A stretch of 63,841 nucleotides of DNA, filler included, from Rozella allomycis CSF55 (taxonomy: Eukaryota), in the NCBI GenBank assembly GCA_000442015.1. It is 13 parts of 13 records of this genome, joined end to end, with 100 filler letters (N's around TTAATTAATTAA, not from the genome) between each part and the next. Parts side by side here need not be neighbours in the genome. Positions count along the whole stretch, not along the records: positions 34,384 to 40,732 come from KE560452.1; 12 more parts are not named here. One strand, written 5' to 3'. Each line of letters begins with the position of its first letter. Position 1 is the stretch's first letter. The position numbers and the translations under genes were made by a program. The notes beneath the pieces were generated by a model that ran no database searches, was not told the DNA's origin, and worked only from the letters and a program-made list of their open reading frames with translations. Positions 1,494 to 62,197 of this stretch are shown here, piece by piece.

Positions 1494-2824
1494 ATGGACT
1501 TTCTACATCTGTCTTACAATGATGACAATTTTGCCACCAAAACAAGTGACACACAGGTAAAAATTACTATTTCTTGAAAAAATGGATCCAAGTAGAGTCG
1601 TCATGCATAGAGCGATTCCAAGAAAATAATTCTTTCACACTTAAGAGGCAAGATCACATCGATTTCATTCTTGAAAACTTTGTTAATCTAGAGTCATATA
1701 TGATCAGTCTTGATTCGAGTCAAACTTGGCTGTGTTATTGGATGTGTCATTCTCTTGCACTTTTAGATGCGCCAATACCTCACCAGGAAAAGTATTTGTT
1801 GATTATTTGTTTTAAAAGATTGATAAACACGATTAGATTGTTGCAAAGTGAACAAGGTGGATTCGCTGGAGCGCCTGGAATGATCCCACATCTTGCATCG
1901 TCTTATGCCGCTATTTTGGCTATAGCAACAATTGGGACACCTGAAGCGTACTCCATTGTTAACACAAAGAAACTATATGAATTTTTGGCAAGTGTGAAAC
2001 ATAAAGATGGCTTCTTTTACATGCAGCAAGGAGGTGAAGTCGATGTAAGGGGATGTTACTGCGCTATTGTTTGTGCATATTTAACAGGCATAATGGACGA
2101 TAAACTGACTGAAAATGTAGCGGAATATATTCTAAAGTAGTTTATCATATTTTGAAATAAAAGATGCCAGACATATGAAGGTGGGTTCGGAGGTATTCCC
2201 GATGCTGAAGCGCATGGCGGATACACGTTTTGTGCAGTTGCTGCGCTCAAGATTTTGGGAAGAGTTAAAGATTGCAATATGGACGCTCTTATTGTAAGAA
2301 ATAATGAAATTCTTGACGTAGCGATTTGTTTCATCGAAACAAATGAAATTGGAAGGAGGATTTCAGGGAAGATGCAATAAATTAGTCGATGGGTGTTATT
2401 CATTTTGGCAAGCAGCGATTTTCCCGATAATTGAGAGTGAATTACCGATTCCAGAGTTTCACGCATACAATCAAGGTAGAATATAGTTTTGCAATTTATA
2501 GAAATGCTTCAAAGGTATTTGCTTTGTTGTTGCCAACTTGATCTTGAGGATCACGGGGGAATGTTAGATAAGCCTGAAAAGTAATAGATTTTTTATCAAC
2601 TTAAATGGTATCCAGATTTGTATCATACATGCTATTGTCTCTCTGGTCTTTCTTTATCTCAAAGAATAATTCGTCTGTCGAAAGAAAATCCATTCACTCT
2701 TAGGTGCATGGAAATGTCAGTTATTCTTGGAGACGAATCAAACGAATTAAAAACTACTCATCCCGTATTTAACATTGTATCAACCAAGGTTGATTCCATT
2801 TTGGATTATTTTAAAGTCAAATAA
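1494..2824 (+). CDS. RAM1: Protein farnesyltransferase beta subunit (6 micro-introns, two with non-AG acceptors)
   Basis: Motifs LDSSQTWLCYW, HLASSYAA, GEVDVRGCY, EAHGGYTFC, KLVDGCYSFW and DKPEKYPDLYHTCYCLSGLS. Introns are 26-29 nt. Confidence 0.95.
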
Positions 2825-3667: not shown

Positions 3668-4872
3668 TTATTCTGTAACTTTTTCTGAATCATCCAAATT
3701 TTCAATTTCGGATTTTCCAGAATCTGAAGATTTTGCATTTTCATCAATTTGTTTAAGTTCTTCTTTTGCCTTTTTTCTTTCTTGCTGGAGAGCTCGACAC
3801 AATTTTTCTAATTTTTGATTTTGGGTTTTCAAATTATCAATTGACGATTGCATTTTCGTTCTCTTTGATTATTAAAGAGAGAATAAAATACCTCGTCAAT
3901 CATTTCTAGAATATTTTTATTAAAAGTTTCAATCTTTCTGGACTGGTTCTGTTTTTCAATTTCCAGGGATCTATTCTTTTTATTCATCTGTAATTAAAAA
4001 TAAAATTTATTTTACATTATCGATTTCTTTCTTTAAAGTATCAAACATTACGTTGCTTTTATCCAACATTACTTCAACGCTCTTAAACTTTTCTGCATAC
4101 GTGCAAATTTGAGCTTTCATTTCTTTTTCTATAAATGAATATTCAGTGACTTGTCTCGTTAAAGTTTCTACTTGAGAATTCATTTCTGAATTATTCTGAA
4201 TTTGTTGCTGCAATTTAGCTTCAGCTAATTTCAATTCCAAATCTTTCTTTTTCATCAAAGTATTAAAATGTTTCTCACGAAGATCATATTGCTCAACATA
4301 ATTATTATATTGTTCTTTCATCTTCTCATACATCCCCTGTCTCTTTTTTTGCTCCTCTGAATCCTTTTCAATCTTTTCTTTAATATCAGAAATAGCACTT
4401 TCAAATTTTGATGACAATTCATCTCTCTTCTTTTCAGCCTCTTTTGATGCCTTCAATGCTTCTTCTCTCACACTCTTATTGTCCTTTTGTAGTTCTCTAC
4501 ACAAATTCTCTAGTTTTTTAGATTTCGCACTATCTTGAATCACTTTAAATAAATAACTATAAAAGTTATTACATTGTTCGCGTTCCTTTATCAATAAATC
4601 ACATTTATTCTTTAAAGTGATGTAACTACTCTCAAGATGCTTCAAATCTTTAATCAGAAATTAAATATAAATTATTTAATTACCAAATAATGATCTTGCA
4701 TAGAGTTGGAAGCGGTTAAAATAGCCTTTCCAATTATTTCACCTAAAATGTACATAAAGAGTCTTTTATTACGAACTGGGATATCTTCAACAGAATATGA
4801 CATTTCTAACTGCTCGAGTCTCGATTTTAATAACTCTATAGAGTCAGGTGATAATTTGCTATTTTGGAGCAT
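3668..4872 (-). CDS. Taxilin-family coiled-coil protein (5 micro-introns)
   Basis: Motifs KLENLCRELQKDNK, QYDLREKHF and KLEKLCRALQQER. Confidence 0.9.
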
Positions 4873-11313: not shown

Positions 11314-12399
11314 TTAAGGTATTTGATGAGAAATTATTTTGTCGTACCAATACTTTGCATAAACTATTTCTGGTAAAGTATCAGGCCCGGGTTGATATTG
11401 TTCAAGTACTTCCTGGGTCAGATCATCCCATGATTTCAAAATAATGACTTTGCTTGTATTATTGAAAGCAGCATTCATAGTTGAGTCCAAAACTATAGGA
11501 ATAGCACCCATGACAAGGGCTTCCCAGGTCCGGTGACAATCAAGTCCATTACCCCTTGGGCTTAAAACAAACTTTGAATCAATCAAATCTTCTAAATATT
11601 GATTATATGGAATTCTATTTTTTAATATTTTCACATTGTTTAAATCGCGAAACCTGTTTTCCAAAGCAGCGCGCGCTCCATCCGTCTCCAGCTTCATGTT
11701 GATATAAAGCAACGTTTTTCTTTCATTAAATTTTTTTCGTTTATTGGACATTTCACTAATGAGACGAATGTTACCATGTCCCCAAATAACATTCGCTAGT
11801 CCGATCGGCAAAGGATGAACTTTTTCATGTATCATATCAGCGTTTTGAGGAAACCAAGCAATTAGTTTATCGAAATTTAAAAGACTCTGGTACGGCTCTG
11901 GAGCTGAATGGTCGCTATTTGAAGTAATTAATATGAATGGCTCCTTGACATTCTGAAGAAGGACATTAGTAATGTGTTTCAGCATGTGAGTAGCGACAAA
12001 GACCAGTTCATTTTTCTTGATTCTTTTCGCTATATGCTCATACACTAGATACGATGTATGTTCATCAAACACATGATGGCAAAATGATCTATAAGTGTCA
12101 CCCGATATGAAAGGACATGAAGGTAGCCTGTTGTCGTCTTCGCTTACTTGGATTTTCGGCAGCAATAAACATTCTCGTTCATAGTAGTCTTTATAATAAG
12201 TAGCATTAATGAACTGTTCAGTATCGCTATCTTCTACCTTAAATGTAGAAACATCAATTGTATTTCCTTTAATTTCTAAGCTGGATGCGTCTTTCTTTTC
12301 TTTGTCTCCAGGACTTAAATAAATAAGTATAAGTAATGTTGCAATTGATACCAGAACTAATGATGGAATGCCCTTTGATCTGTAAAGAAATGTCTTCAT
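11314..12399 (-). CDS. Exostosin/GT47-like type II membrane glycosyltransferase, copy A
   Basis: N-terminal TM anchor and YLEDLIDSKFVLSPRGNGLDCHRTWEALVMGAIPI. Intronless. Confidence 0.8.
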   Translation of the reverse strand: MKTFLYRSKGIPSLVLVSIATLLILIYLSPGDKEKKDASSLEIKGNTIDVSTFKVEDSDTEQFINATYYKDYYERECLLLPKIQVSEDDNRLPSCPFISGDTYRSFCHHVFDEHTSYLVYEHIAKRIKKNELVFVATHMLKHITNVLLQNVKEPFILITSNSDHSAPEPYQSLLNFDKLIAWFPQNADMIHEKVHPLPIGLANVIWGHGNIRLISEMSNKRKKFNERKTLLYINMKLETDGARAALENRFRDLNNVKILKNRIPYNQYLEDLIDSKFVLSPRGNGLDCHRTWEALVMGAIPIVLDSTMNAAFNNTSKVIILKSWDDLTQEVLEQYQPGPDTLPEIVYAKYWYDKIISHQIP

Positions 12400-12828
12400 C
12401 CTCGCACTAAATTTTCAAAATTTCCAGTTCGCCGTCATGTGTTAGATTATGATTACACTATATTTTAGTCGCTACTACATGAAAAGTTGTACGGTTGTTA
12501 TACAAGTCCATCTTCCAGTCGATTTGAAAGTGTACCGAAAAATTCACCATATACTTTACCCTTTATAATGTTTATGCCAGCATTATAGAACGATATTGGC
12601 ATATTTGTTAAGGGAATGTTGCGTATTATATAAATCTGTAACCATCTAATTTCTGATTCCATCTTTCATAGAAAACTTATGGTATTATCGTTAAAATTAT
12701 AATTAACTTGGTGTAAATATAAGAAAACAACATCCTTGAGCTTCCATAAATTATAGTCTTCATTGATCTTCACTAAAATAAGTTCAAAATTTGGTTTTGT
12801 GGCTGACGTTTGAACTTTGAAGTTGCAA

Positions 12829-14509: not shown

Positions 14510-14804
14510 TGTTTACAATTTTTGAATGGGGGGGGTCCAACGAGGCCGTATTTATAGGGTGGGGTCTTGATTGATTTTCTTAGATAAACAAATATAAATC
14601 CTAATGATAAACAAATATTTCGAGGGGGAATTTTCGAATTGACGATGTAAACAAACATTCACATTTCAATGGGGAGAGAGAATATATTGTAAGAACCGAA
14701 GGCATTAGAAATAAAAAAACAACTAATAAAATAGGAGGATTGAGTCGTATATTATTTCATTATTCAAGTCTAACACCAGTTGTTTCCTAAAATAGGTTCG
14801 GTTA

Positions 14805-15848
14805 ATGGGAATTCATCAAGTCAAAAGGTCAAAAACACTTATTTTAACAATGATTTGTGCAATGTGCTTCTTGTTCATATTCCAACATATGATTAAGCGG
14901 CACCATATCGATTATAATTCTTCATTCAATTCCAAACCGGAAGAACAAAGCATTGATAAAAGAAATTACTACGAAAGAGGATGCGAGAATCTTCCGAAGT
15001 ATCATGTTAACGAGGGTGATATGAAAATACCAGCGTGTCCTTACATTTCTGGCGATACCTTCCGGTCTTTCAGCAACCTAGTGTTTGATGAAACAACCCC
15101 ACAAATGGCATATTCATATAAAGCAGAGAGAATAAGGAAAAATAACTTAGTTTTTGTAGCTACACATTATTTGCGAGAGGTTGAAGCAGCCATTCTAACT
15201 AATACAAGAGAACCATTTATACTAATAACTTCTAACAGTGACGACCCAGCGCCTTCAGCTTACCCAAAATTACTAAATTTTAAATATTTAATAGCTTGGT
15301 TTGCACAAAATGTCGATATGGCACATGAGAAGGTTTATCCACTCCCAATTGGTATCGCAAACTACAAATGGGGTCACGGTAATATCACATTAATCAAACA
15401 TATAGCCGAAAGAAAGAAACCATTTCATAAAAGACAAACTCTGCTTTATGTTAACATGAATGCAGGAACCGATAGATCAGGCGTCAGAGCGACATTAGAA
15501 AAAAGATTTTCTTCATTTTCAAATGTTAAAATTTTGAACGGTCGAGTGCTATACAAAGAATATCTAGAGCATTTACAAGATGCCAAATTTGTACTTAGTC
15601 CGCGGGGGAATGGATTAGATTGTCATCGAACGTGGGAATCAATGATAATGGGTGCTGTACCAATTATTTTGTCTTCTGAAATGGACAAGATGTTTTTTAA
15701 TGTCACCAATGTGATTATTCTGAAAACATGGGAGGAATTAAACGAAGAAATGCTTACGTCATTCAAACCTGACTTTCAAGGTGATGGCTCAGATATAATA
15801 TATGCAAAATATTGGTATGATAAAATCTCTTCGCGAAAGGTTGCTTAA
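14805..15848 (+). CDS. Exostosin/GT47-like glycosyltransferase, copy B
   Basis: Paralogue of 11314-12399 (CPYISGDTFRSF, AKFVLSPRGNGLDCHRTWE, YAKYWYDKI). Intronless. Confidence 0.8.
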   Translation: MGIHQVKRSKTLILTMICAMCFLFIFQHMIKRHHIDYNSSFNSKPEEQSIDKRNYYERGCENLPKYHVNEGDMKIPACPYISGDTFRSFSNLVFDETTPQMAYSYKAERIRKNNLVFVATHYLREVEAAILTNTREPFILITSNSDDPAPSAYPKLLNFKYLIAWFAQNVDMAHEKVYPLPIGIANYKWGHGNITLIKHIAERKKPFHKRQTLLYVNMNAGTDRSGVRATLEKRFSSFSNVKILNGRVLYKEYLEHLQDAKFVLSPRGNGLDCHRTWESMIMGAVPIILSSEMDKMFFNVTNVIILKTWEELNEEMLTSFKPDFQGDGSDIIYAKYWYDKISSRKVA

Positions 15849-30686: not shown

Positions 30687-33154
<2,468 letters not shown>

Positions 33155-33770: not shown

Positions 33771-34384
33771 TTAACTAGGGTAGTGAAAAAATTCAGGCCT
33801 AGGGCTCCTTAATGTTGGAATGGATATTCGGCTGTAATAAAACGAATATACAAAGGATCATTTAACAATCTGGCACCAATCATATGAAAACATAATATAG
33901 TAGCTTAAAAGCTTTCACTAGCACGCAAATAACCTATAGGCTATAGGCCATTGGCCATTCGCGTTAATTGTCAATCGACCTTAATTCAACCACTCTTGCA
34001 AAGATGTACACATAAACAGACACTATAAGGCAACTACTTTGATCACTGCATGCACCTGAAATATCATTCTTTGTTACAATTCCGAACTGGCTGATACTGC
34101 AGCACGGCTAAAGGCTCTAATAGCCAATTGGCGTTAATTTTTAATCAAACTTAATTGCATGTCACCTAAATTTAAGGGTGCTCGTCAGTTCTATTAACAT
34201 AACCCATTACTGCCGTACAAAAACATTCGCAATATGAATTGGCCAGATTGCAACATGATAGGTGTGTTTGACGTATAAAACAANNNNNNNNNNNNNNNNN
34301 NNNNNNNNNNNNNNNNNNNNNNNNNNNTTAATTAATTAANNNNNNNNNNNNNNNNNNNNNNNNNNNNNNNNNNNNNNNNNNNNA

Positions 34385-35338
34385 ACTCTGGAAAAATATC
34401 AAGAAAGAGATCAACTGATTCAAGAATTTGCAAAGAAGAGACACCAAATTCGGTATTTCTTCGAAGATATAGAGGGAGTTGATTATAGTGATGATCCCCT
34501 TGGACGTTCCTATATTTGGGACAAAATGTTTATTTCTGAGAAACCAGAATTTTTTGACGACGTTTTTGAATTAACGCGTAAAATTTACCGTAGCCAGAGC
34601 CCCACTAACTCGTCGTATAGAATTCCCAGTGGAAGAACAAAAGCAGAAACATTGCTTCTTGAAGAGGAGTTTTTTAAAAAATACGAAGATTTGGGGAATA
34701 TGATATTTCAAGTGGAAGAATTGAGGAAAGAAAAGGAGATATTGAAAAAAGAAGTTCATGAGAGCATGATCCAACTAAGGCGTATGCGTCGGATATTTAA
34801 AGAAGCAGATTCTCTTCTTAGCGATGTACTAAAAGGAATGGCGAGTTTAGAAGAAGAGGACTACTTTCTTGACGTTAGTCAATTCTCTGACGTTGAAAAA
34901 AGGGAGGCTCGCGAAGAATTGGAATGGGCTATGGTTTTCGTTCACACTTCTTGTATCTTCGGATTTCAAGAAAAGCACAGCTCGTTTGGAGAATTTCCTT
35001 TTCATTATGATGACGAATGGCCCAATTCGGATTCTTGGTCCATTGCTGATACTATTGAACAAATCGAGAAGATTAAATCGATGGTTGACACAATTTGGAG
35101 AGACGTATTGAGAAGGGCAGATTTAATACGTGAAATAATGAACGTCAAAATGAGAGATATTCCAAGGTGCCTTGTAATTAGTTCAGCAAAAGAATTTGAT
35201 GAGAGGAACAAATCGGAGACAAAAGAAAATCGTTTATCGCATGTTGAATATTATTCAAACTTAAGGCCATACAAATTTGATGAAGAAATTGTGAAACGCT
35301 GGCAGAAATTTTCAGACAAATATCTTCCCAAAGAGTAA
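34385..35338 (+). CDS. Hypothetical helical/coiled-coil protein (5' partial, intronless)
   Basis: Open frame of more than 300 codons from the contig edge to TAA at 35338. Confidence 0.6.
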   Translation, partial: TLEKYQERDQLIQEFAKKRHQIRYFFEDIEGVDYSDDPLGRSYIWDKMFISEKPEFFDDVFELTRKIYRSQSPTNSSYRIPSGRTKAETLLLEEEFFKKYEDLGNMIFQVEELRKEKEILKKEVHESMIQLRRMRRIFKEADSLLSDVLKGMASLEEEDYFLDVSQFSDVEKREAREELEWAMVFVHTSCIFGFQEKHSSFGEFPFHYDDEWPNSDSWSIADTIEQIEKIKSMVDTIWRDVLRRADLIREIMNVKMRDIPRCLVISSAKEFDERNKSETKENRLSHVEYYSNLRPYKFDEEIVKRWQKFSDKYLPKE

Positions 35339-35381
35339 GTTTGTTTATTAAAGCAATAATAAATATATTTCCAGTCGATTA

Positions 35382-37742
35382 TTAACATCTTTCGAATACT
35401 TTATAAAGGTCATGTAAATCAGTAACAATTGTGTGGGCATCTTGCACCTGTGGTTTATAGAATTTCTCTTTTAGGGATGGAAGAAAAGCATGTTCGATCT
35501 GCCACTTTAAATTACCATGATCTTCTCCTGCGGCGTCAATTTTAATTTCAGGGGAATATAAGTCTTTTAACAACATGGATATCTTTTTGAAACAATACTT
35601 TTCATTATTCCAATCAACGCTATAGCATAAGTCAATCATAAATTTAGGAATCTTTGACAATGGTGGAATATAATTTGCGACGACTAAAGGAATTGTGTAA
35701 AGTTTGGAATCATTGACATTTAACTGGAAATATTCATCTAACAATCTTGCCTTTGAAGACAATAAACTAATCACCTACTAACACTTGCTTGAAGTTTCTT
35801 ACTTGGCCAATGATATCAATTGCGGGAATATCTAAATTGTATGTACTAATGACAAAGACTTCAAATTCTTCAACTTTAAAAGCTAAATTTAAAATTTCCT
35901 CTACCTTTATTGGTGATTGAAGTTGTATGACTCCAAAATTGGCAAAGTTAAAGAGGATTGATTGATAAAGAAAATCAGGAATTACTTGTGTCATGTCTAA
36001 TATGACTAGTTTAGTTTGACATTGTAATAGAATATTATAATTATTAATGAAACCAACAAATGTATGATTTTTCAAAATGGCTGCTAAATGTGGATCTGTT
36101 TTGTATTAAATATGATTTTACTGTAGTTTTTGGTCGCTTCAGCCATTAATTCTTTTATACTTGTAAATTGTACTTTAATATAGGGTCTATCCTCATTGTT
36201 AAGTATGTTTGATTCATCAAGTCTTTGTCCATTTGATTCTTTCACGCTTTGGCTCAAATCTATAAGACTACCTTCAGTGTTTTTAATTCCTTCTCTTTCA
36301 TTCAAGATCTCCGAATTATCAACCAGAAGTTTATCAGGTATCACTTCTTGGCTCATTTCATTATTCGCGTTGGAATTCGTATTGACAACATTCAAATTTT
36401 TAATATTAGTCGATTCTTTCTTTTCCTTGTCAACTTTAAAGAAGGATAAAAGACTTTTAGCTTTTGGATCAGTTCTAACAGTTTGAAATGGATAAGAACT
36501 CTGGGACGAAGGCTGAGACGATGTTGTCGGGGATTTAAAATTATTGGGCTTCTTTACAATCTAGTCACACCTTAATATATTAGAATACTTGAACAGAAAA
36601 AACTGAAGAAGTTTCGTTCATAGAAAGGGTGCTTTGAATCTTTTCAACAATGAAATCTACAATCTCCTCTTGTCGCTCTAGCAAAACCATTATTAATATT
36701 AAAGCACTTTTACTTGCTCTTTTGAGGGGTGCATATTCACATCAATTTTGTTAGGGGGTAGTTTAATGTCCACAAATACCCATGGATGTGTTCCTTTTAA
36801 GAGAAGCGTTGAATAAAGATTCTGAATCTTTTTTGCAAGTTTCTTATTTTCTACTAGACGCCCTCTTAATAAAAAGATTAATTATTACCGTTGATAAAAA
36901 GAATCATTGTGAACTTCTTTGCTTGATAACTCACCATTGATGCTATCACACTCCCACATATATCAAATTCTTCATTAGTTACATCAATGACTTTCAAAAA
37001 CGATGAAAGGCTTGAAGAGTACACATTCTCTATAGATTTTACTACAGAGCTTGCATTGAATGAAATAAAATCATTGGTTGTGGAATTATGCTTTTTGCAT
37101 GAAAAAGAAACATTAAAGTGAAGAATAGACATTTTCTGTATAAAAGATATTATATTTTGATATTCATCACTAAAAGCTTTTGGAGTTGTCTTCTTTCTAA
37201 GCGGAATACAATAAAATAGATTTTCAACCTTTATCAATATATAACTCTCTTTACCATGATCAAAGTACCGTTATTAGACGCACAATATTTCTTTTCAACT
37301 AATTTACAGTTTTTGTACGTTGCTCTAGCACCAAATTCTTGACTCTGCGGTTTGGATGTAACCGAAACAAAGGATACAGAAGACACACTCGCCAAAGCTT
37401 CACCTCTAAATCCAAAAGAATTAATTCTATTTAGGTCGTGAATGTTTGAAATTTTTGACGTACAATGCCTTTCGCATAATAGATCTAAATCATTAAACTC
37501 TTGAGGTATAATATATTAAAGTACGTTAATTCCAGAGCCATCGTCTTGTATTTGAATCAACGAGTAACCGCCATCTTTAATTTGGATGTTGATACTGGTG
37601 GCATTTGCATCTAGACTATTTTCGACCAGTTCTTTCACAATATTTAAAGGCGAATGAATAACCTTTATTATACTTTCATATAACATACTTCACCTGCGGC
37701 AATCCGTTGGATAACTTTGCCATCCAACTTTTTGATGGACAT
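35382..37742 (-). CDS. MLH1: Mismatch repair protein Mlh1 (about 8 micro-introns)
   Basis: Motifs [39 protein letters not shown] and [11 protein letters not shown]. The C-terminus LYKVFERC is diagnostic. Confidence 0.96.
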
Positions 37743-37943
37743 GCAAAATATTTTCTTAAATTTTAACTTTAGATAAGTCCTAAAAAAGTACTAACAAAAA
37801 AGTGATAGAAACATTATTATCAATCAATAATTAAATAAAATATAGTCTGTTGGTATCGAAAATGCGTAACCACTGATTTTTTAAATAGCAATGTAAGTTA
37901 GAACTTAAAATACAATAATCTTTCAATTTCAGCGTGTCAAAAT

Positions 37944-38132
37944 TTATTCAGCGTCAAAAAAGTTTCCAAGATGTGAGGAAGATATGGTTCCGATCCTCTC
38001 TGATTTACTCAAGTGTTTCTTATTCTGTTTTATTGTCTTGAAAGGATCCTCATTTTTAACTGCATTTCTTTTCTCTAGAAGTTGTAGGTCCTGACTGGTT
38101 AGCTCAATTTGTGTCCATCCTCGACGAAGCAT
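37944..38132 (-). CDS. CDC26: APC/C subunit Cdc26-like small protein
   Basis: N-terminus MLRRGWTQIELTSQDLQLLE resembles the Cdc26 motif MLRRxPTxIxLxxxDI. Confidence 0.6.
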   Translation of the reverse strand: MLRRGWTQIELTSQDLQLLEKRNAVKNEDPFKTIKQNKKHLSKSERIGTISSSHLGNFFDAE

Positions 38133-38220
38133 TTTGAAATTTCGAAGTTCCTGAAAGTTGACTGGTGAGAAGATCTTATTAAATGAAAGCTGCAAAAAAT
38201 AACTTTTCAATTATCTATAA

Positions 38221-39602
38221 CTAAATTTTATTATAAAAAATTATGTAGGAATTCTTGATACAATCATTTTGAGTATCATTTTCTACTGTTATACATTCTG
38301 CATCGCTAAAATGTAGTGACGATTTATTGTCAATATTGACCAGTGAACAATAATGCCCAGAGTATGGCGTGCTCCCAATATGGTATATTAAAGAGCCTAG
38401 AGAATATCCAGAGAGCGAATTTGGATCCACTGCAACATTATTCTTCCACAGAAGCCCATCCCTATATTCAAACCTATTTAATGTAAGAGCTAATAGATCT
38501 GGTTTGTGTATTATTTTATGAGACAAATTGGCATTGGTAAATTCATTACAATTCTCACATTGATAATTTTCTAAGTTTTCCGTGAGAGTTTCATAATTGT
38601 CGAATAGACATTGAATGTTGGTATCGTTATTTGAGAGTGGCAGATGAAGATTAAATGAATTTTCTGTACTAAAACTAAAAGTTCCACATTTCACACATTC
38701 CACTTTCTTTTGTATTGAAATCATAAATTTGGCTTTAAAGGTTTCTAGAGCAATTTTGTTTTCGCATTTTAAAATTTCTAATAGATCATCCATTAAGAGA
38801 ATGTAAAATTCGTGTGCGTCATGCTGATCAGAGTTGTTTAATTGTTCATGCTTGCTGACCACCCATTTTCTCACATTTACAACTGAAGATATTTTATGTG
38901 TTTCAAGGCTACTGAATAGTTTATTAAGGTGAAGAAATCCTTCATTTCTATGATCCATTGACTGGGCAAAAGATTTAAATATTTGGCAATGAAAAAGTGA
39001 AATCATAATTGAATTAATAAAACACCAATTTCCAGGATTTATCAATCTATATTAATTAACTTGCATTATAATTACCCTCTTTTCTCTACTCGCAATTGTG
39101 CGTCGGATTTGTAAAATGAGCGAAGACACCTTTTTGGGGATACGGGAGTGTGGATGGTTATCGGCTTCTTTTTTATAGGACTGTGAACTTCTTGGACCTT
39201 CCTCTTATGTACAAGATTCTTCATGGGTGAGGATGGCGATGAAAGATTTCTCGATTCCAAATTAACTTTGGATGCACTTTTAGGAGTAAAAACGTCTTTG
39301 AGGTCGATTTTTTCAGTTCTTTTTCTTCTCGGTATTGAGTCTAACCACTCTGATATTATTTTGTAATCGTCTTGATTCTTGCATACGATTTGGAATCTTC
39401 CACTTGCACTTGACCCTGAAGTGCTAAATGTGATTGCTTGATTTGCTGCATTAAGGAATACATGTTTCAAATGGTTCACAAGTGGAATAACCCTTTCTTG
39501 AAATGAAAACGTTCCATTTCGCAGTGTAATATTTAACTTGTCAAATTCAAGTTTTTCTCCAACAAGTGGACTCCATTCTATTTTATCTATCAAAACTTCC
39601 AT
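38221..39602 (-). CDS. Ubiquitin-specific protease with a PH-like N-terminal domain (USP37/26/29-like)
   Basis: Spliced Cys box GLINPGNWCFINS, QHDAHEF, and His box HIGSTPYSGHY. The linker is rich in S/T-P sites. Confidence 0.8.
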
Positions 39603-39615
39603 CTCTTATATGCGA

Positions 39616-39693
39616 TTTTGGCGGGAAGAAAAAACTGCAAGGGTGAATTTTTTGTCAATTTCCCTTGACTTTATGAAAATCTCGGCGCGCAAA
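39616..39693. promoter_or_regulatory. Candidate E2F-type sites upstream of the USP gene
   Basis: TTTTGGCGGGAA (39616-39627) and GGCGCGCAAA (39684-39693) in an AT-rich promoter. Confidence 0.45.
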
Positions 39694-39758
39694 TTACGGG
39701 CTAACATTAAAAACTGCTATAAAACTCAAAATAGGTTTATTATACATAAAAAATCTAC

Positions 39759-40179
39759 TTACATAAAAAAGGTTCAACAAGCCTTTTGATTTCTAATCGA
39801 TTTTCGTCATCCATTCCATGTCCCATTTGATTTGTTTTCTGCAACTTGCATTCAAGCATTTCCATGACGGCTTCAAATTCATTTCTCATTCTTTCAAGTT
39901 TATCCGTTTCAGACAACTATAAAAACCATCATAACTAATCTACCACAACCAATTGCAGGTCGCCCGCATTTCGTATCATTATAGTCTGTTTTTCCAGCAC
40001 CAAATATTCCAGTTCCTGGTTCTCCTGGTACTCTCTTTCCAACCAATCAAAAGCACTTACGACATGAGTGCAGCAATTCCCTTGAACAGCATCAGCTTGC
40101 TCAAATCTATTTCAATAATTCCACACGAAAACAATACGTCCTCTTTCTTCTTATCAAAAAACGAAACACCCTGAATCAT
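39759..40179 (-). CDS. Small hypothetical protein (2 micro-introns; not in the ORF track)
   Basis: MIQGVSFFDKKKEDVLFSCG... is kept in frame by 26- and 27-nt GT-AG introns to TAA at 39759. Confidence 0.6.
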
Positions 40180-40232
40180 CCTGTCTCATTATCACGTGAC
40201 TATTACCAAACAAAAAATTCTACGAAATTCAA

Positions 40233-40732
40233 ATGACGACCAACGCCACACTGATGGATCTTGTAGCCGGGTCGGTAAGCATTAAATTGGCGTAATATAC
40301 AGCTGGCCGGTCTCGTTGGCAAGATTGTTGAGCACCCGTTCGATACGATTAAGGTGAAATTGCAATCGCAGCCGGTAACTGGCGCGAAAATGTATAATGG
40401 GCCATTGAATTGCTTGGTGAAGAGTGTGCGGCAAAATGGGTTTTGGAATTTGTATCAAGTAAATTGCAGATGGTTGGTGGAGAGGGACTGCCGAGCCCGC
40501 TGATTGGCAGTATGGCGGAAAATGCGGTTCTGTTTCTTACTTATGGGCAGGTAATGAAGGAACTGGACAGGTATGACTTGACTATGTTGCAGAAATCTGT
40601 TATCGCGGGAGCTGTTGGTGGGTTTTTTGTGTCAAAGATACTGACACCGATTGAGCTGATTAAATGCCGGATGCAGATACAGCATGAAGCGTTTAGCAAA
40701 GTTGAACATAGAGGATCATTTGATTGCTTTAA
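40233..40732 (+). CDS. Mitochondrial carrier, ornithine/basic amino-acid type (3' partial)
   Basis: Motifs HPFDTIKVKLQ, LYQGLPSPLIGSMAENAVLF and TPIELIKCRMQ. Confidence 0.9.
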
Positions 40733-61344: not shown

Positions 61345-62197
61345 ATGAGTTCTCATTCTAAGAGGCCAAGAGAGGAAGAAAACGAATTAGAAGAAAGATC
61401 AATCGACGCAGAAATAAAAGCCTGGGTTGCGCAAGACGGTGTAGACATCACAGACATCCCAGTCAATTTACTACCGTTCAAAGAGCGGGTGTTGGACTTG
61501 TTAAAGGAAAAGGTTGCACAACAAATACGAATAGAAGAACTTAAAGCGGAAATCGCGACATTAACTCATTTACGCAAACTAGCCGAGAAAAAAAAAGACC
61601 TCCATACATTCATTAAAGATGTAACGTTCTTGACAGACGATGTACGGCAATCCTTCATAGACACAGTTTTAAAAATNGAATGACATCCATACATTCATTA
61701 AAGATGTAACATTCTTGACAGACGATGTACGGCAATCCTTCATAGACACAGTTTTAAAAATTCCACAGGATCAATTCGATTGTTTAGTTCATGATAAGGG
61801 GCAAAAATATGAAAAATATTCTATACTCAAAGACGTGATGAAGAAAGCAGGTTTGGGGCTCAAAGAAATTGATGTAAGCGTGTTTGGTGTAGAAAGTAAA
61901 CATATATCTATAATCTCACATTGACCCATTATTAATGCATAGTCCATCTGGGCTCAAAAATCAATGGCACTATGGGGCGCTCGGTTTTCTTTTTTGTAGG
62001 CCTATGGACAATTACGGACTCCCTATAACCCTTAAATCAAAAAATATAGCATATTTTGTTAATCTCTATGAGAAGGACGAATATGAAAACTTGAATAATT
62101 ATTTTCCCTCGGCAATAAATTTATGCGTCTCCATGTGCAAGATGTACCAGAATGAAACAGATCGTCGCGGAGCTTGTAAATTTTTAATATGGTTTTT
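61345..62197 (+). CDS. Crinkler/REase-associated-family-like protein (3' partial)
   Basis: Coiled-coil N-terminus, then SPS...CRPMDNYGLPITL...AINLCVSMCKMYQNETDRR, a pattern seen upstream of PD-(D/E)XK domains in fungal CRN-like proteins. One GT..TG intron. Confidence 0.45.

Follow-up and report, generated by a model that had tools for sequence, protein, structure and literature searches.

The MLH1 locus

Rozella allomycis CSF55 carries a gene for the mismatch-repair protein MLH1 whose fifth intron begins with GT and ends with TG. Here, we report an analysis of this gene and of short introns elsewhere in the genome (NCBI GenBank assembly GCA_000442015.1; 11.86 Mb in 1,059 contigs). The starting point was a 63,841-nucleotide stretch, called the window, in which 13 parts of 13 records are joined end to end with 100 filler letters between parts; unprefixed positions count along the window. 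Splicing of intron 5 as a 26-nt GT..TG intron is well supported by homology, intron lengths, haplotypes, and a genomic class of TG ends, from which we infer the mRNA join. The contig carrying MLH1 (KE560452.1; positions 34,384 to 40,732) is 6,349 nt long, and the gene runs on the minus strand from 37742 down to 35382.

35382..37742, minus strand: MLH1 gene; nine exons, giving a single 715-aa frame when the eight introns are removed
37663..37688, minus strand: intron 1, 26 nt, GT..AG
37498..37524, minus strand: intron 2, 27 nt, GT..AG; bypasses an AG ending at 25
37229..37254, minus strand: intron 3, 26 nt, GT..AG
36863..36888, minus strand: intron 4, 26 nt, GT..AG; bypasses an AG ending at 24
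36714..36862, minus strand: exon 5; its 3' end is the MutL HP motif (DNA_mis_repair profile 49-96)
36688..36713, minus strand: intron 5, 26 nt, GTA donor, ATG end, phase 0
36589..36687, minus strand: exon 6; starts V-L-L-E
36561..36588, minus strand: intron 6, 28 nt, GT..AG
36096..36121, minus strand: intron 7, 26 nt, GT..AG
35775..35802, minus strand: intron 8, 28 nt, GT..AG; bypasses an AG ending at 25, the use of which gives a stop

Introns 1 to 8 thus measure 26, 27, 26, 26, 26, 28, 26, and 28 nt, with seven of the eight AG ended and the fifth TG ended. In a profile search, the exons flanking intron 5 matched the MutL/MLH1 families HATPase_c, DNA_mis_repair, and Mlh1_C, and the domain order (GHKL ATPase, S5-like DNA_mis_repair, Mlh1_C) is that of the MutL family; the deposited protein that matched in a protein search was Rozella allomycis Mlh1. 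The deposited model P0001 has 625 aa, versus 715 aa for the full protein, and residues are missing at all eight introns; public Rozella gene models seem to mishandle introns of 26 to 28 nt.

Possible ends of intron 5

As a sequence observation, the 26-nt GT..TG element at 36688-36713 is confirmed: it lies on the minus strand, in phase 0, and parts a Q codon from a V codon. The preliminary description, made from the sequence alone, had read it as an intron colinear with the MutL family and had held that the alternative in-frame AG, at 38 nt, would delete a conserved Val; the homologue alignment that it had proposed as a check bears out the colinearity, and the 38-nt cut does delete V-L-L-E, that Val included. 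Two further sites enter into the choice of cut.

36706..36707, minus strand: another GT, at +7 of the intron, which could serve as donor for an in-frame, canonical 32-nt GT..AG intron
36676..36679, minus strand: AGAG downstream of intron 5; of its two AGs, the one at 36 nt is out of frame and the one at 38 nt in frame

The AG at 36 nt, the first past the intron end, leads to a stop after six codons, and the 32-nt option costs two residues and keeps the conserved Val. Homologues were scored alignment-free around the HP motif (42 nonself hits, less 3 without the motif). All 39 motif-bearing homologues have V or I five residues after the proline and F, L, or I seven residues after it; the TG cut places V and L there, the 38-nt cut R and E, and the 32-nt cut V and R. 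The TG cut is favored because it alone yields both of these invariably hydrophobic residues. In the 29 of the 42 nonself homologues that were aligned, the columns of V-L-L-E were gapless in 24 and held a one-residue gap in 5.

Short introns and their 3' ends

A two-strand gene model with explicit introns, free of homology, learned from 125 pieces totaling 846,428 nt, or about 7% of the genome; they comprised the window, kinase loci, small contigs, and 600 kb of a single contig. When only AG ends were allowed, 1,441 introns were expected, of which 7 were 25 nt, 339 were 26 nt, 396 were 27 nt, 299 were 28 nt, 185 were 29 nt, and 66 were 30 nt long; 6 were expected at 38 nt, MLH1 intron 5 among them. 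Confident AG introns fell at 26 to 29 nt in 1,096 of 1,191 cases and at 36 to 40 nt in none, and their donors were GTA in 1,164 and GTG in 18. The first AG at or after position 26 was used in 1,175/1,186 introns, a rule that the length prior partly builds in for in-frame pairs.

With the acceptor left free and started flat, the fit assigned about 1,446 introns to AG (1348.6), TG (43.8), TC (11.4), CG (10.2), GG (9.7), TT (6.6), AC (5.9), AA (0.7), and AT (0.1), so that TG makes up about 3% of short introns (about 44 of 1,446, by the gene model). MLH1 intron 5 received a posterior of 0.991. A simulated all-AG genome returned 0.3 TG of about 1,269 introns, and 40 spiked AA and 40 spiked AT ends were recovered as 40.3 and 41.4; from these controls, the model is able to see non-AG ends, and the real excess is in TG. 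The CG and GG counts lie near the noise floor, since TC, TT, and AC receive 5 to 11 counts in real DNA. Raw counts from donor to dinucleotide were also tried as a measure and were set aside (the AG peak at 26 to 28 was visible, but the noise was too high for TG).

The TG calls are spread over several contigs. Sixteen of the 24 strong ones have no in-frame AG at 26 to 60 nt, 22 have no AG at 26 to 34 nt, and retention would give a stop or a broken frame in 23. No TG call of the gene model carries a U12 donor. At positions a little way in from the ends of longer AG introns, TG shows no clear depletion (13 of 935 positions, versus 11 for AG).

The same introns share an internal landmark.

36691, minus strand: A at intron 5 position +23, putative branch adenosine from genome statistics

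Confident introns of 26, 27, 28, 29, and 30 nt have A at position +23 in 87%, 71%, 66%, 75%, and 64% of cases, respectively (n = 314, 330, 274, 167, and 50; background A, about 33%). The peak tracks the 5' end of the intron, not the 3' end, and the A of intron 5 coincides with it. Genome statistics make this A likely to be the branch adenosine. Among TG calls, it is enriched as well (20/30; P = 1.7e-4).

Non-AG calls above 0.5 numbered 76, of which 52 had usable flanks; gaps were extrapolated from Pfam profile positions, and only 9 of the 52 had both flanks in the same Pfam family. Besides MLH1, four of five testable TG calls were colinear with homologues.

2581..2607, plus strand: farnesyltransferase beta GT..TG intron, 27 nt; an exact 9-residue insertion relative to solved structures
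L075 7090-7116, minus strand: HMG-CoA lyase TG intron; an exact 9-residue insertion relative to solved structures
L066 204-229, minus strand: ATG4-family TG intron; colinear, gap 0
L084 5749-5774, plus strand: CG intron in a DUF846 gene; exactly colinear

The farnesyltransferase beta intron has no in-frame AG within 60 nt. The HMG-CoA lyase junction misfits the broad Pfam profile and fits the solved structures exactly, and a TG junction in an FHA gene is colinear with a gap of one residue. For the other ends, a second CG call is four residues off, in a loop, one GG call agrees to within one residue, and a GC call has an AG sitting 2 nt upstream.

A second haplotype

Seven sequencing runs contained MLH1, and four of them (X1, X2, X3, and X7, from three studies) were compared as contigs, a level at which a rare allele could be missed; the assembly itself may derive from some of the runs. 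Another haplotype shows in all four, with differences flanking the TG at 36667, 36673, 36705, and 36707 and no change listed at 36688-36689, so the genomic AG named in the preliminary description as grounds for refuting the intron did not appear in these DNA contigs. The X3 contig (3,028 nt) has 15 differences, all 15 of them listed and none at the TG. A base error at the TG is unlikely, because the TG is also on the second haplotype. The change at 36707 (C to A in all four runs) turns the G of the +7 GT into T, and the 32-nt option is therefore undone on that haplotype.

Heterozygosity is dense in and around MLH1 (35035-36256), and allele mixes vary between runs.

Weighing the alternatives

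We consider it very probable that intron 5 is a real U2-type intron, defined by its donor and a fixed distance, in which TG serves as a working 3' splice site where the short terminal interval holds no AG. Its donor, GTAAAA, is of the genome's GTA consensus type, as expected of U2-type introns; its end, being TG on two haplotypes, departs from the AG 3' dinucleotide of that class.

Several observations weigh against this. Both deposited MLH1 models splice at the 38-nt AG. In humans, TG acceptors were found only next to an AG (PMC2374985), and AGs stand 10 and 12 nt downstream of the TG of intron 5. False calls occur in the gene model: TC ends receive 11.4, a TC call in CCT was rejected as an intron (it misses 9 to 10 residues), and the GG call at 40375-40400 looks false, its downstream flank having no carrier hit. 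In a DNA-alkylation repair gene, a TG call with a posterior of 0.55 is not colinear and misses 9 to 10 residues. The A at +23 does not single out TG, as calls not ending in G are enriched for it too (13/24; P = 0.007). None of the seven MLH1-bearing runs is recorded as RNA, and the four compared looked DNA-like, with no splice joints, which is silent on expression. Lastly, X1, X2, and X7 each have one unlisted A-to-T difference among 48 rows beyond those listed; we infer that it is one of the 10 differences of a bubble at 35035-35262, as changes shared at full depth were listed.

Canonical splicing at the in-frame 38-nt AG, to give a protein without V-L-L-E, is the alternative that survives best, and it is improbable. 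Its ends are canonical, it was chosen by both deposited models, and the AG-only model gives it 0.89; against that, it violates the pattern kept in 39/39 homologues, must bypass a TAG at 36 nt in favor of a GAG, and has a length at which none of the confident AG introns lies. The deposited model carries little weight because the one that was fully compared is wrong at every intron, dropping residues at all seven canonical ones as well.

Slightly less probable again is that the TG is a recent splice-site mutation and that the intron is mostly retained or misspliced at 36 nt, with MLH1 weak or decaying. A slightly damaging allele could become fixed in a small parasite population, but the remaining gene is intact (715 codons, both domains), and the TG is on two haplotypes. 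Random damage would strike the final G too, yet AA and AT stand near 0 versus 44 for TG, and essential-type genes, such as that for farnesyltransferase beta, have TG ends as well.

If the second GT, at +7, served as donor, the result would be a canonical 32-nt GT..AG intron that is in frame, keeps the conserved Val at a loss of two residues, and sits inside the tail of the length distribution. This intron is nonetheless very unlikely: in all four runs, the other haplotype has T in place of its donor G, GTG donors are few (18/1,191), and it puts R where 39/39 homologues have F, L, or I.

An assembly or sequencing error, or a hidden AG allele, stands equally low. Contigs lose rare variants, some runs may be those from which the assembly was made, and the single unlisted A-to-T difference in each of X1, X2, and X7 is of the type that would restore AG. 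Set against this are the fully listed X3 differences (15/15) and the listing of four neighboring all-run differences, with which a shared change at 36689 would rank; nor would errors spare the last G genome-wide. A minor (U12-type) intron with flexible ends is the least credible reading of all, for although a ZRSR2-like gene and weak matches to U12 and U6atac, both below cutoff, hint at a minor spliceosome, the donor is GTAAAA and not RTATCCTT, no TG call has a U12 donor, and the length and A at +23 match those of the bulk of U2 introns.

The ZRSR2-like gene and the two matches lie at L132 612-1755 (minus strand), L090 4863-4995 (plus strand), and G000:C12:4427-4533; the matches reach 36.4 bits for U12 (cutoff, 53) and 26.8 bits for U6atac (cutoff, 33), and these signals possibly reflect a divergent or decaying minor spliceosome.

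Splicing machinery and proposed mechanism

In Rozella, the U2 GUAGUA and U6 ACAGAGA pairing motifs are intact, the Prp8 alpha-finger exon differs from the human one at 4 of 75 residues, and Slu7, Fyv6, and U2AF35 were all found, the last apparently well kept, judging by its motifs. Loss of Prp18, Slu7, Fyv6, U2AF35, U2, or U6 was considered as a cause of the TG ends and rejected, all six being present (the search covered these and not Prp22, FAM32A, Cactin, SDE2, or U2AF65). The Prp18 gene (Pfam, 57.5 bits) is altered in one conserved part.

L114 1561-1752 (G000:C1022): Prp18 gene; the conserved loop, rewritten here, lies within one exon

The Rozella loop, V-M-G-P-I-N-L-N-E-R, has one residue extra and is without the conserved T, G, and H. 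In a set of 139 homologues (of 150 returned; 1 without the motif, Rozella's own, and 9 too short were excluded), 131 keep W-P-x-G-6x-H-x-R and thus the spacing from W to H-x-R, and the loop residues are conserved at 90% (T), 94% (V), 92% (G), 93% (I), 94% (H), and 94% (R). Similarity to Rozella decided which homologues entered the set, and no sister lineage was recognized in it; scanning metagenomes with the Prp18 exon yielded five weak loci and no Rozella-like relative, and a word-index protein search with Prp18 gave seven proteins, none of them a sister-lineage copy. Both deposited Rozella Prp18 copies share the loop and differ from each other at three residues just upstream. At the sequence level, then, the conserved Prp18 loop appears disrupted.

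In the yeast P complex, the intron's G(-1) is paired to G(+1) and its A(-2) to the branch A, and positions -3 and -4 of the 3' splice site are braced by the Prp18 loop (bioRxiv 10.1101/212811). Yeast without Prp18 or its loop activates AUG, ACG, UGG, and UUG ends and uses sites closer than 10 nt to the branch, the minimum that occurs naturally in yeast being 10 nt (PMC10711555).

We propose that Rozella introns are trimmed to a near-fixed size, with a GTA donor, a likely branch A at about +23, and a 3' end 3 to 6 nt beyond it (26 to 29 nt overall). Within that short interval, the last G would be required and the preceding A not strictly so; where no AG falls at 26 to 34 nt, TG would be used, and CG or GG less often. 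In 26-nt introns, the branch A would be position -4, with a single base separating it from A(-2), and the pair between branch A and A(-2) seen in yeast may not form. In yeast, the Prp18 loop sets a minimum distance from branch to 3' end and suppresses TG, CG, and GG ends. The rewritten loop is our tentative choice as the likeliest cause of the TG ends, at somewhat less than an even chance, because Rozella has both traits of the yeast mutant, a distance of 3 to 6 nt from the likely branch to the end and a G(-1) kept without A(-2). A wider scheme, which we hold a little more doubtfully still, is a naturally retuned major spliceosome, in which branching would occur at a fixed distance of about 22 nt from the donor and ligation 3 to 6 nt farther on, the Prp18 loop would accommodate such a short 3' end and drop the check at -2, and hundreds of constitutive introns across the genome, including MLH1 intron 5, would end in TG, CG, or GG.

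Some points speak against this mechanism. The Prp18 link is the coincidence of two features in one genome. The TG and CG ends of Micromonas lie in one chromosome region only (PMC3879977), a confinement that a trans-acting change would not explain. In Yarrowia, the branch point and 3' site are juxtaposed, and no relaxed ends are reported in the text covered (PMC2911113).

Other features of the window and genome

The gene model made further non-AG calls, as follows.

L137 near 1259, minus strand: TG call in a Rab-like GTPase gene
4655-4683, minus strand: TG call (posterior, 0.69) in a gene without Pfam hits
61896-61923, plus strand: TG call (posterior, 0.89) in a gene without Pfam hits
40375-40400, plus strand: GG call (posterior, 0.986) within a mitochondrial carrier gene; the frame stays open through it, with what we take to be carrier-like sequence
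31620-31645, plus strand: TT call (posterior, 0.87) in an MCM-family gene
39735-39762, minus strand: AC call (posterior, 0.92) in a small gene

The TT and AC calls may be contig errors or have mis-set ends. Elsewhere, a small-subunit (SSU) rRNA match (L002 1190-2052) covers about 860 nt of the 3' half only and adjoins sequence repeated in the spacer, and two exostosin/GT47-like glycosyltransferase open reading frames lie near each other (11317-12414, minus strand; 14796-15845, plus strand).

Comparison with known systems

Rozella introns have been described as about 30 nt long and without strong motifs (PMC6349667), and their density is given in PMC8476143. A literature search found no paper on Rozella TG ends or on Rozella Prp18 within its coverage, outside which most subscription papers and supplements fell. 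TG and CG acceptors in short introns were known before; new here are the haplotype check, the gene-model controls, the A at +23, and the Prp18 lead. Should the splice prove real, a normal mismatch-repair protein could be made here only by way of a free-standing TG end, a case that the human data did not show, and Rozella would offer a natural genome for studying how 3' splice sites are read, including which of the A(-2) and G(-1) contacts is dispensable, what the shortest link from branch to 3' end is, and whether the Prp18 loop acts as gatekeeper. Public Rozella models seem wrong at TG introns and at many ordinary ones of 26 to 27 nt, which affects the phylogenomics of an early-branching lineage.

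In Ganoderma lingzhi, a baseline of 22 GT-TG sites (0.024%) is not above that of GT-AA (PMC11590231); the Rozella TG estimate is about 100 times higher and is specific to pairs ending in G. In humans, TG ends of U2 introns (Szafranski et al. 2007, PMC2374985) make up 0.02% of 3' splice sites and are alternative and tied to a nearby AG, and PMC4176328 likewise describes them as rare alternative sites tied to AG. The human and Rozella sites share a U2-type GT donor, a TG end, and a kept G(-1); constitutive TG use was not found in humans, whereas in Rozella about 3% is predicted, and 16/24 strong calls lack any in-frame AG up to 60 nt.

Saccharomyces cerevisiae without Prp18 or without its conserved loop (Roy et al. 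2023, PMC10711555) resembles Rozella in its AUG, UUG, ACG, and UGG ends and its short distance from branch to 3' end. The yeast case, however, is a laboratory mutant with minor alternative use of such sites; Rozella retains a Prp18, its loop rewritten, and seems to have no productive ends other than TG at these introns. Yarrowia lipolytica, like Rozella, has its branch point a few bases from the intron end, but its branch motif is strong, its ends are mainly CAG or TAG, and the text covered describes no fixed distance from donor to branch (PMC2911113).

Closest is Micromonas BOC1, in which 34 short, AT-rich introns end in TG or CG, most of them validated by expressed sequence tags (ESTs) (PMC3879977). 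In both organisms, GT introns are short and AT-rich, and a minority of them are TG or CG ended. Those of BOC1 are shorter than 75 nt, lie in one low-GC chromosome region, and have no discernible branch motif; unlike them, those of Rozella, an unrelated lineage, are 26 to 29 nt long, are found on several contigs, and have an A at a fixed +23. As the closest precedent, the EST-validated Micromonas introns make real TG splicing in Rozella more likely.
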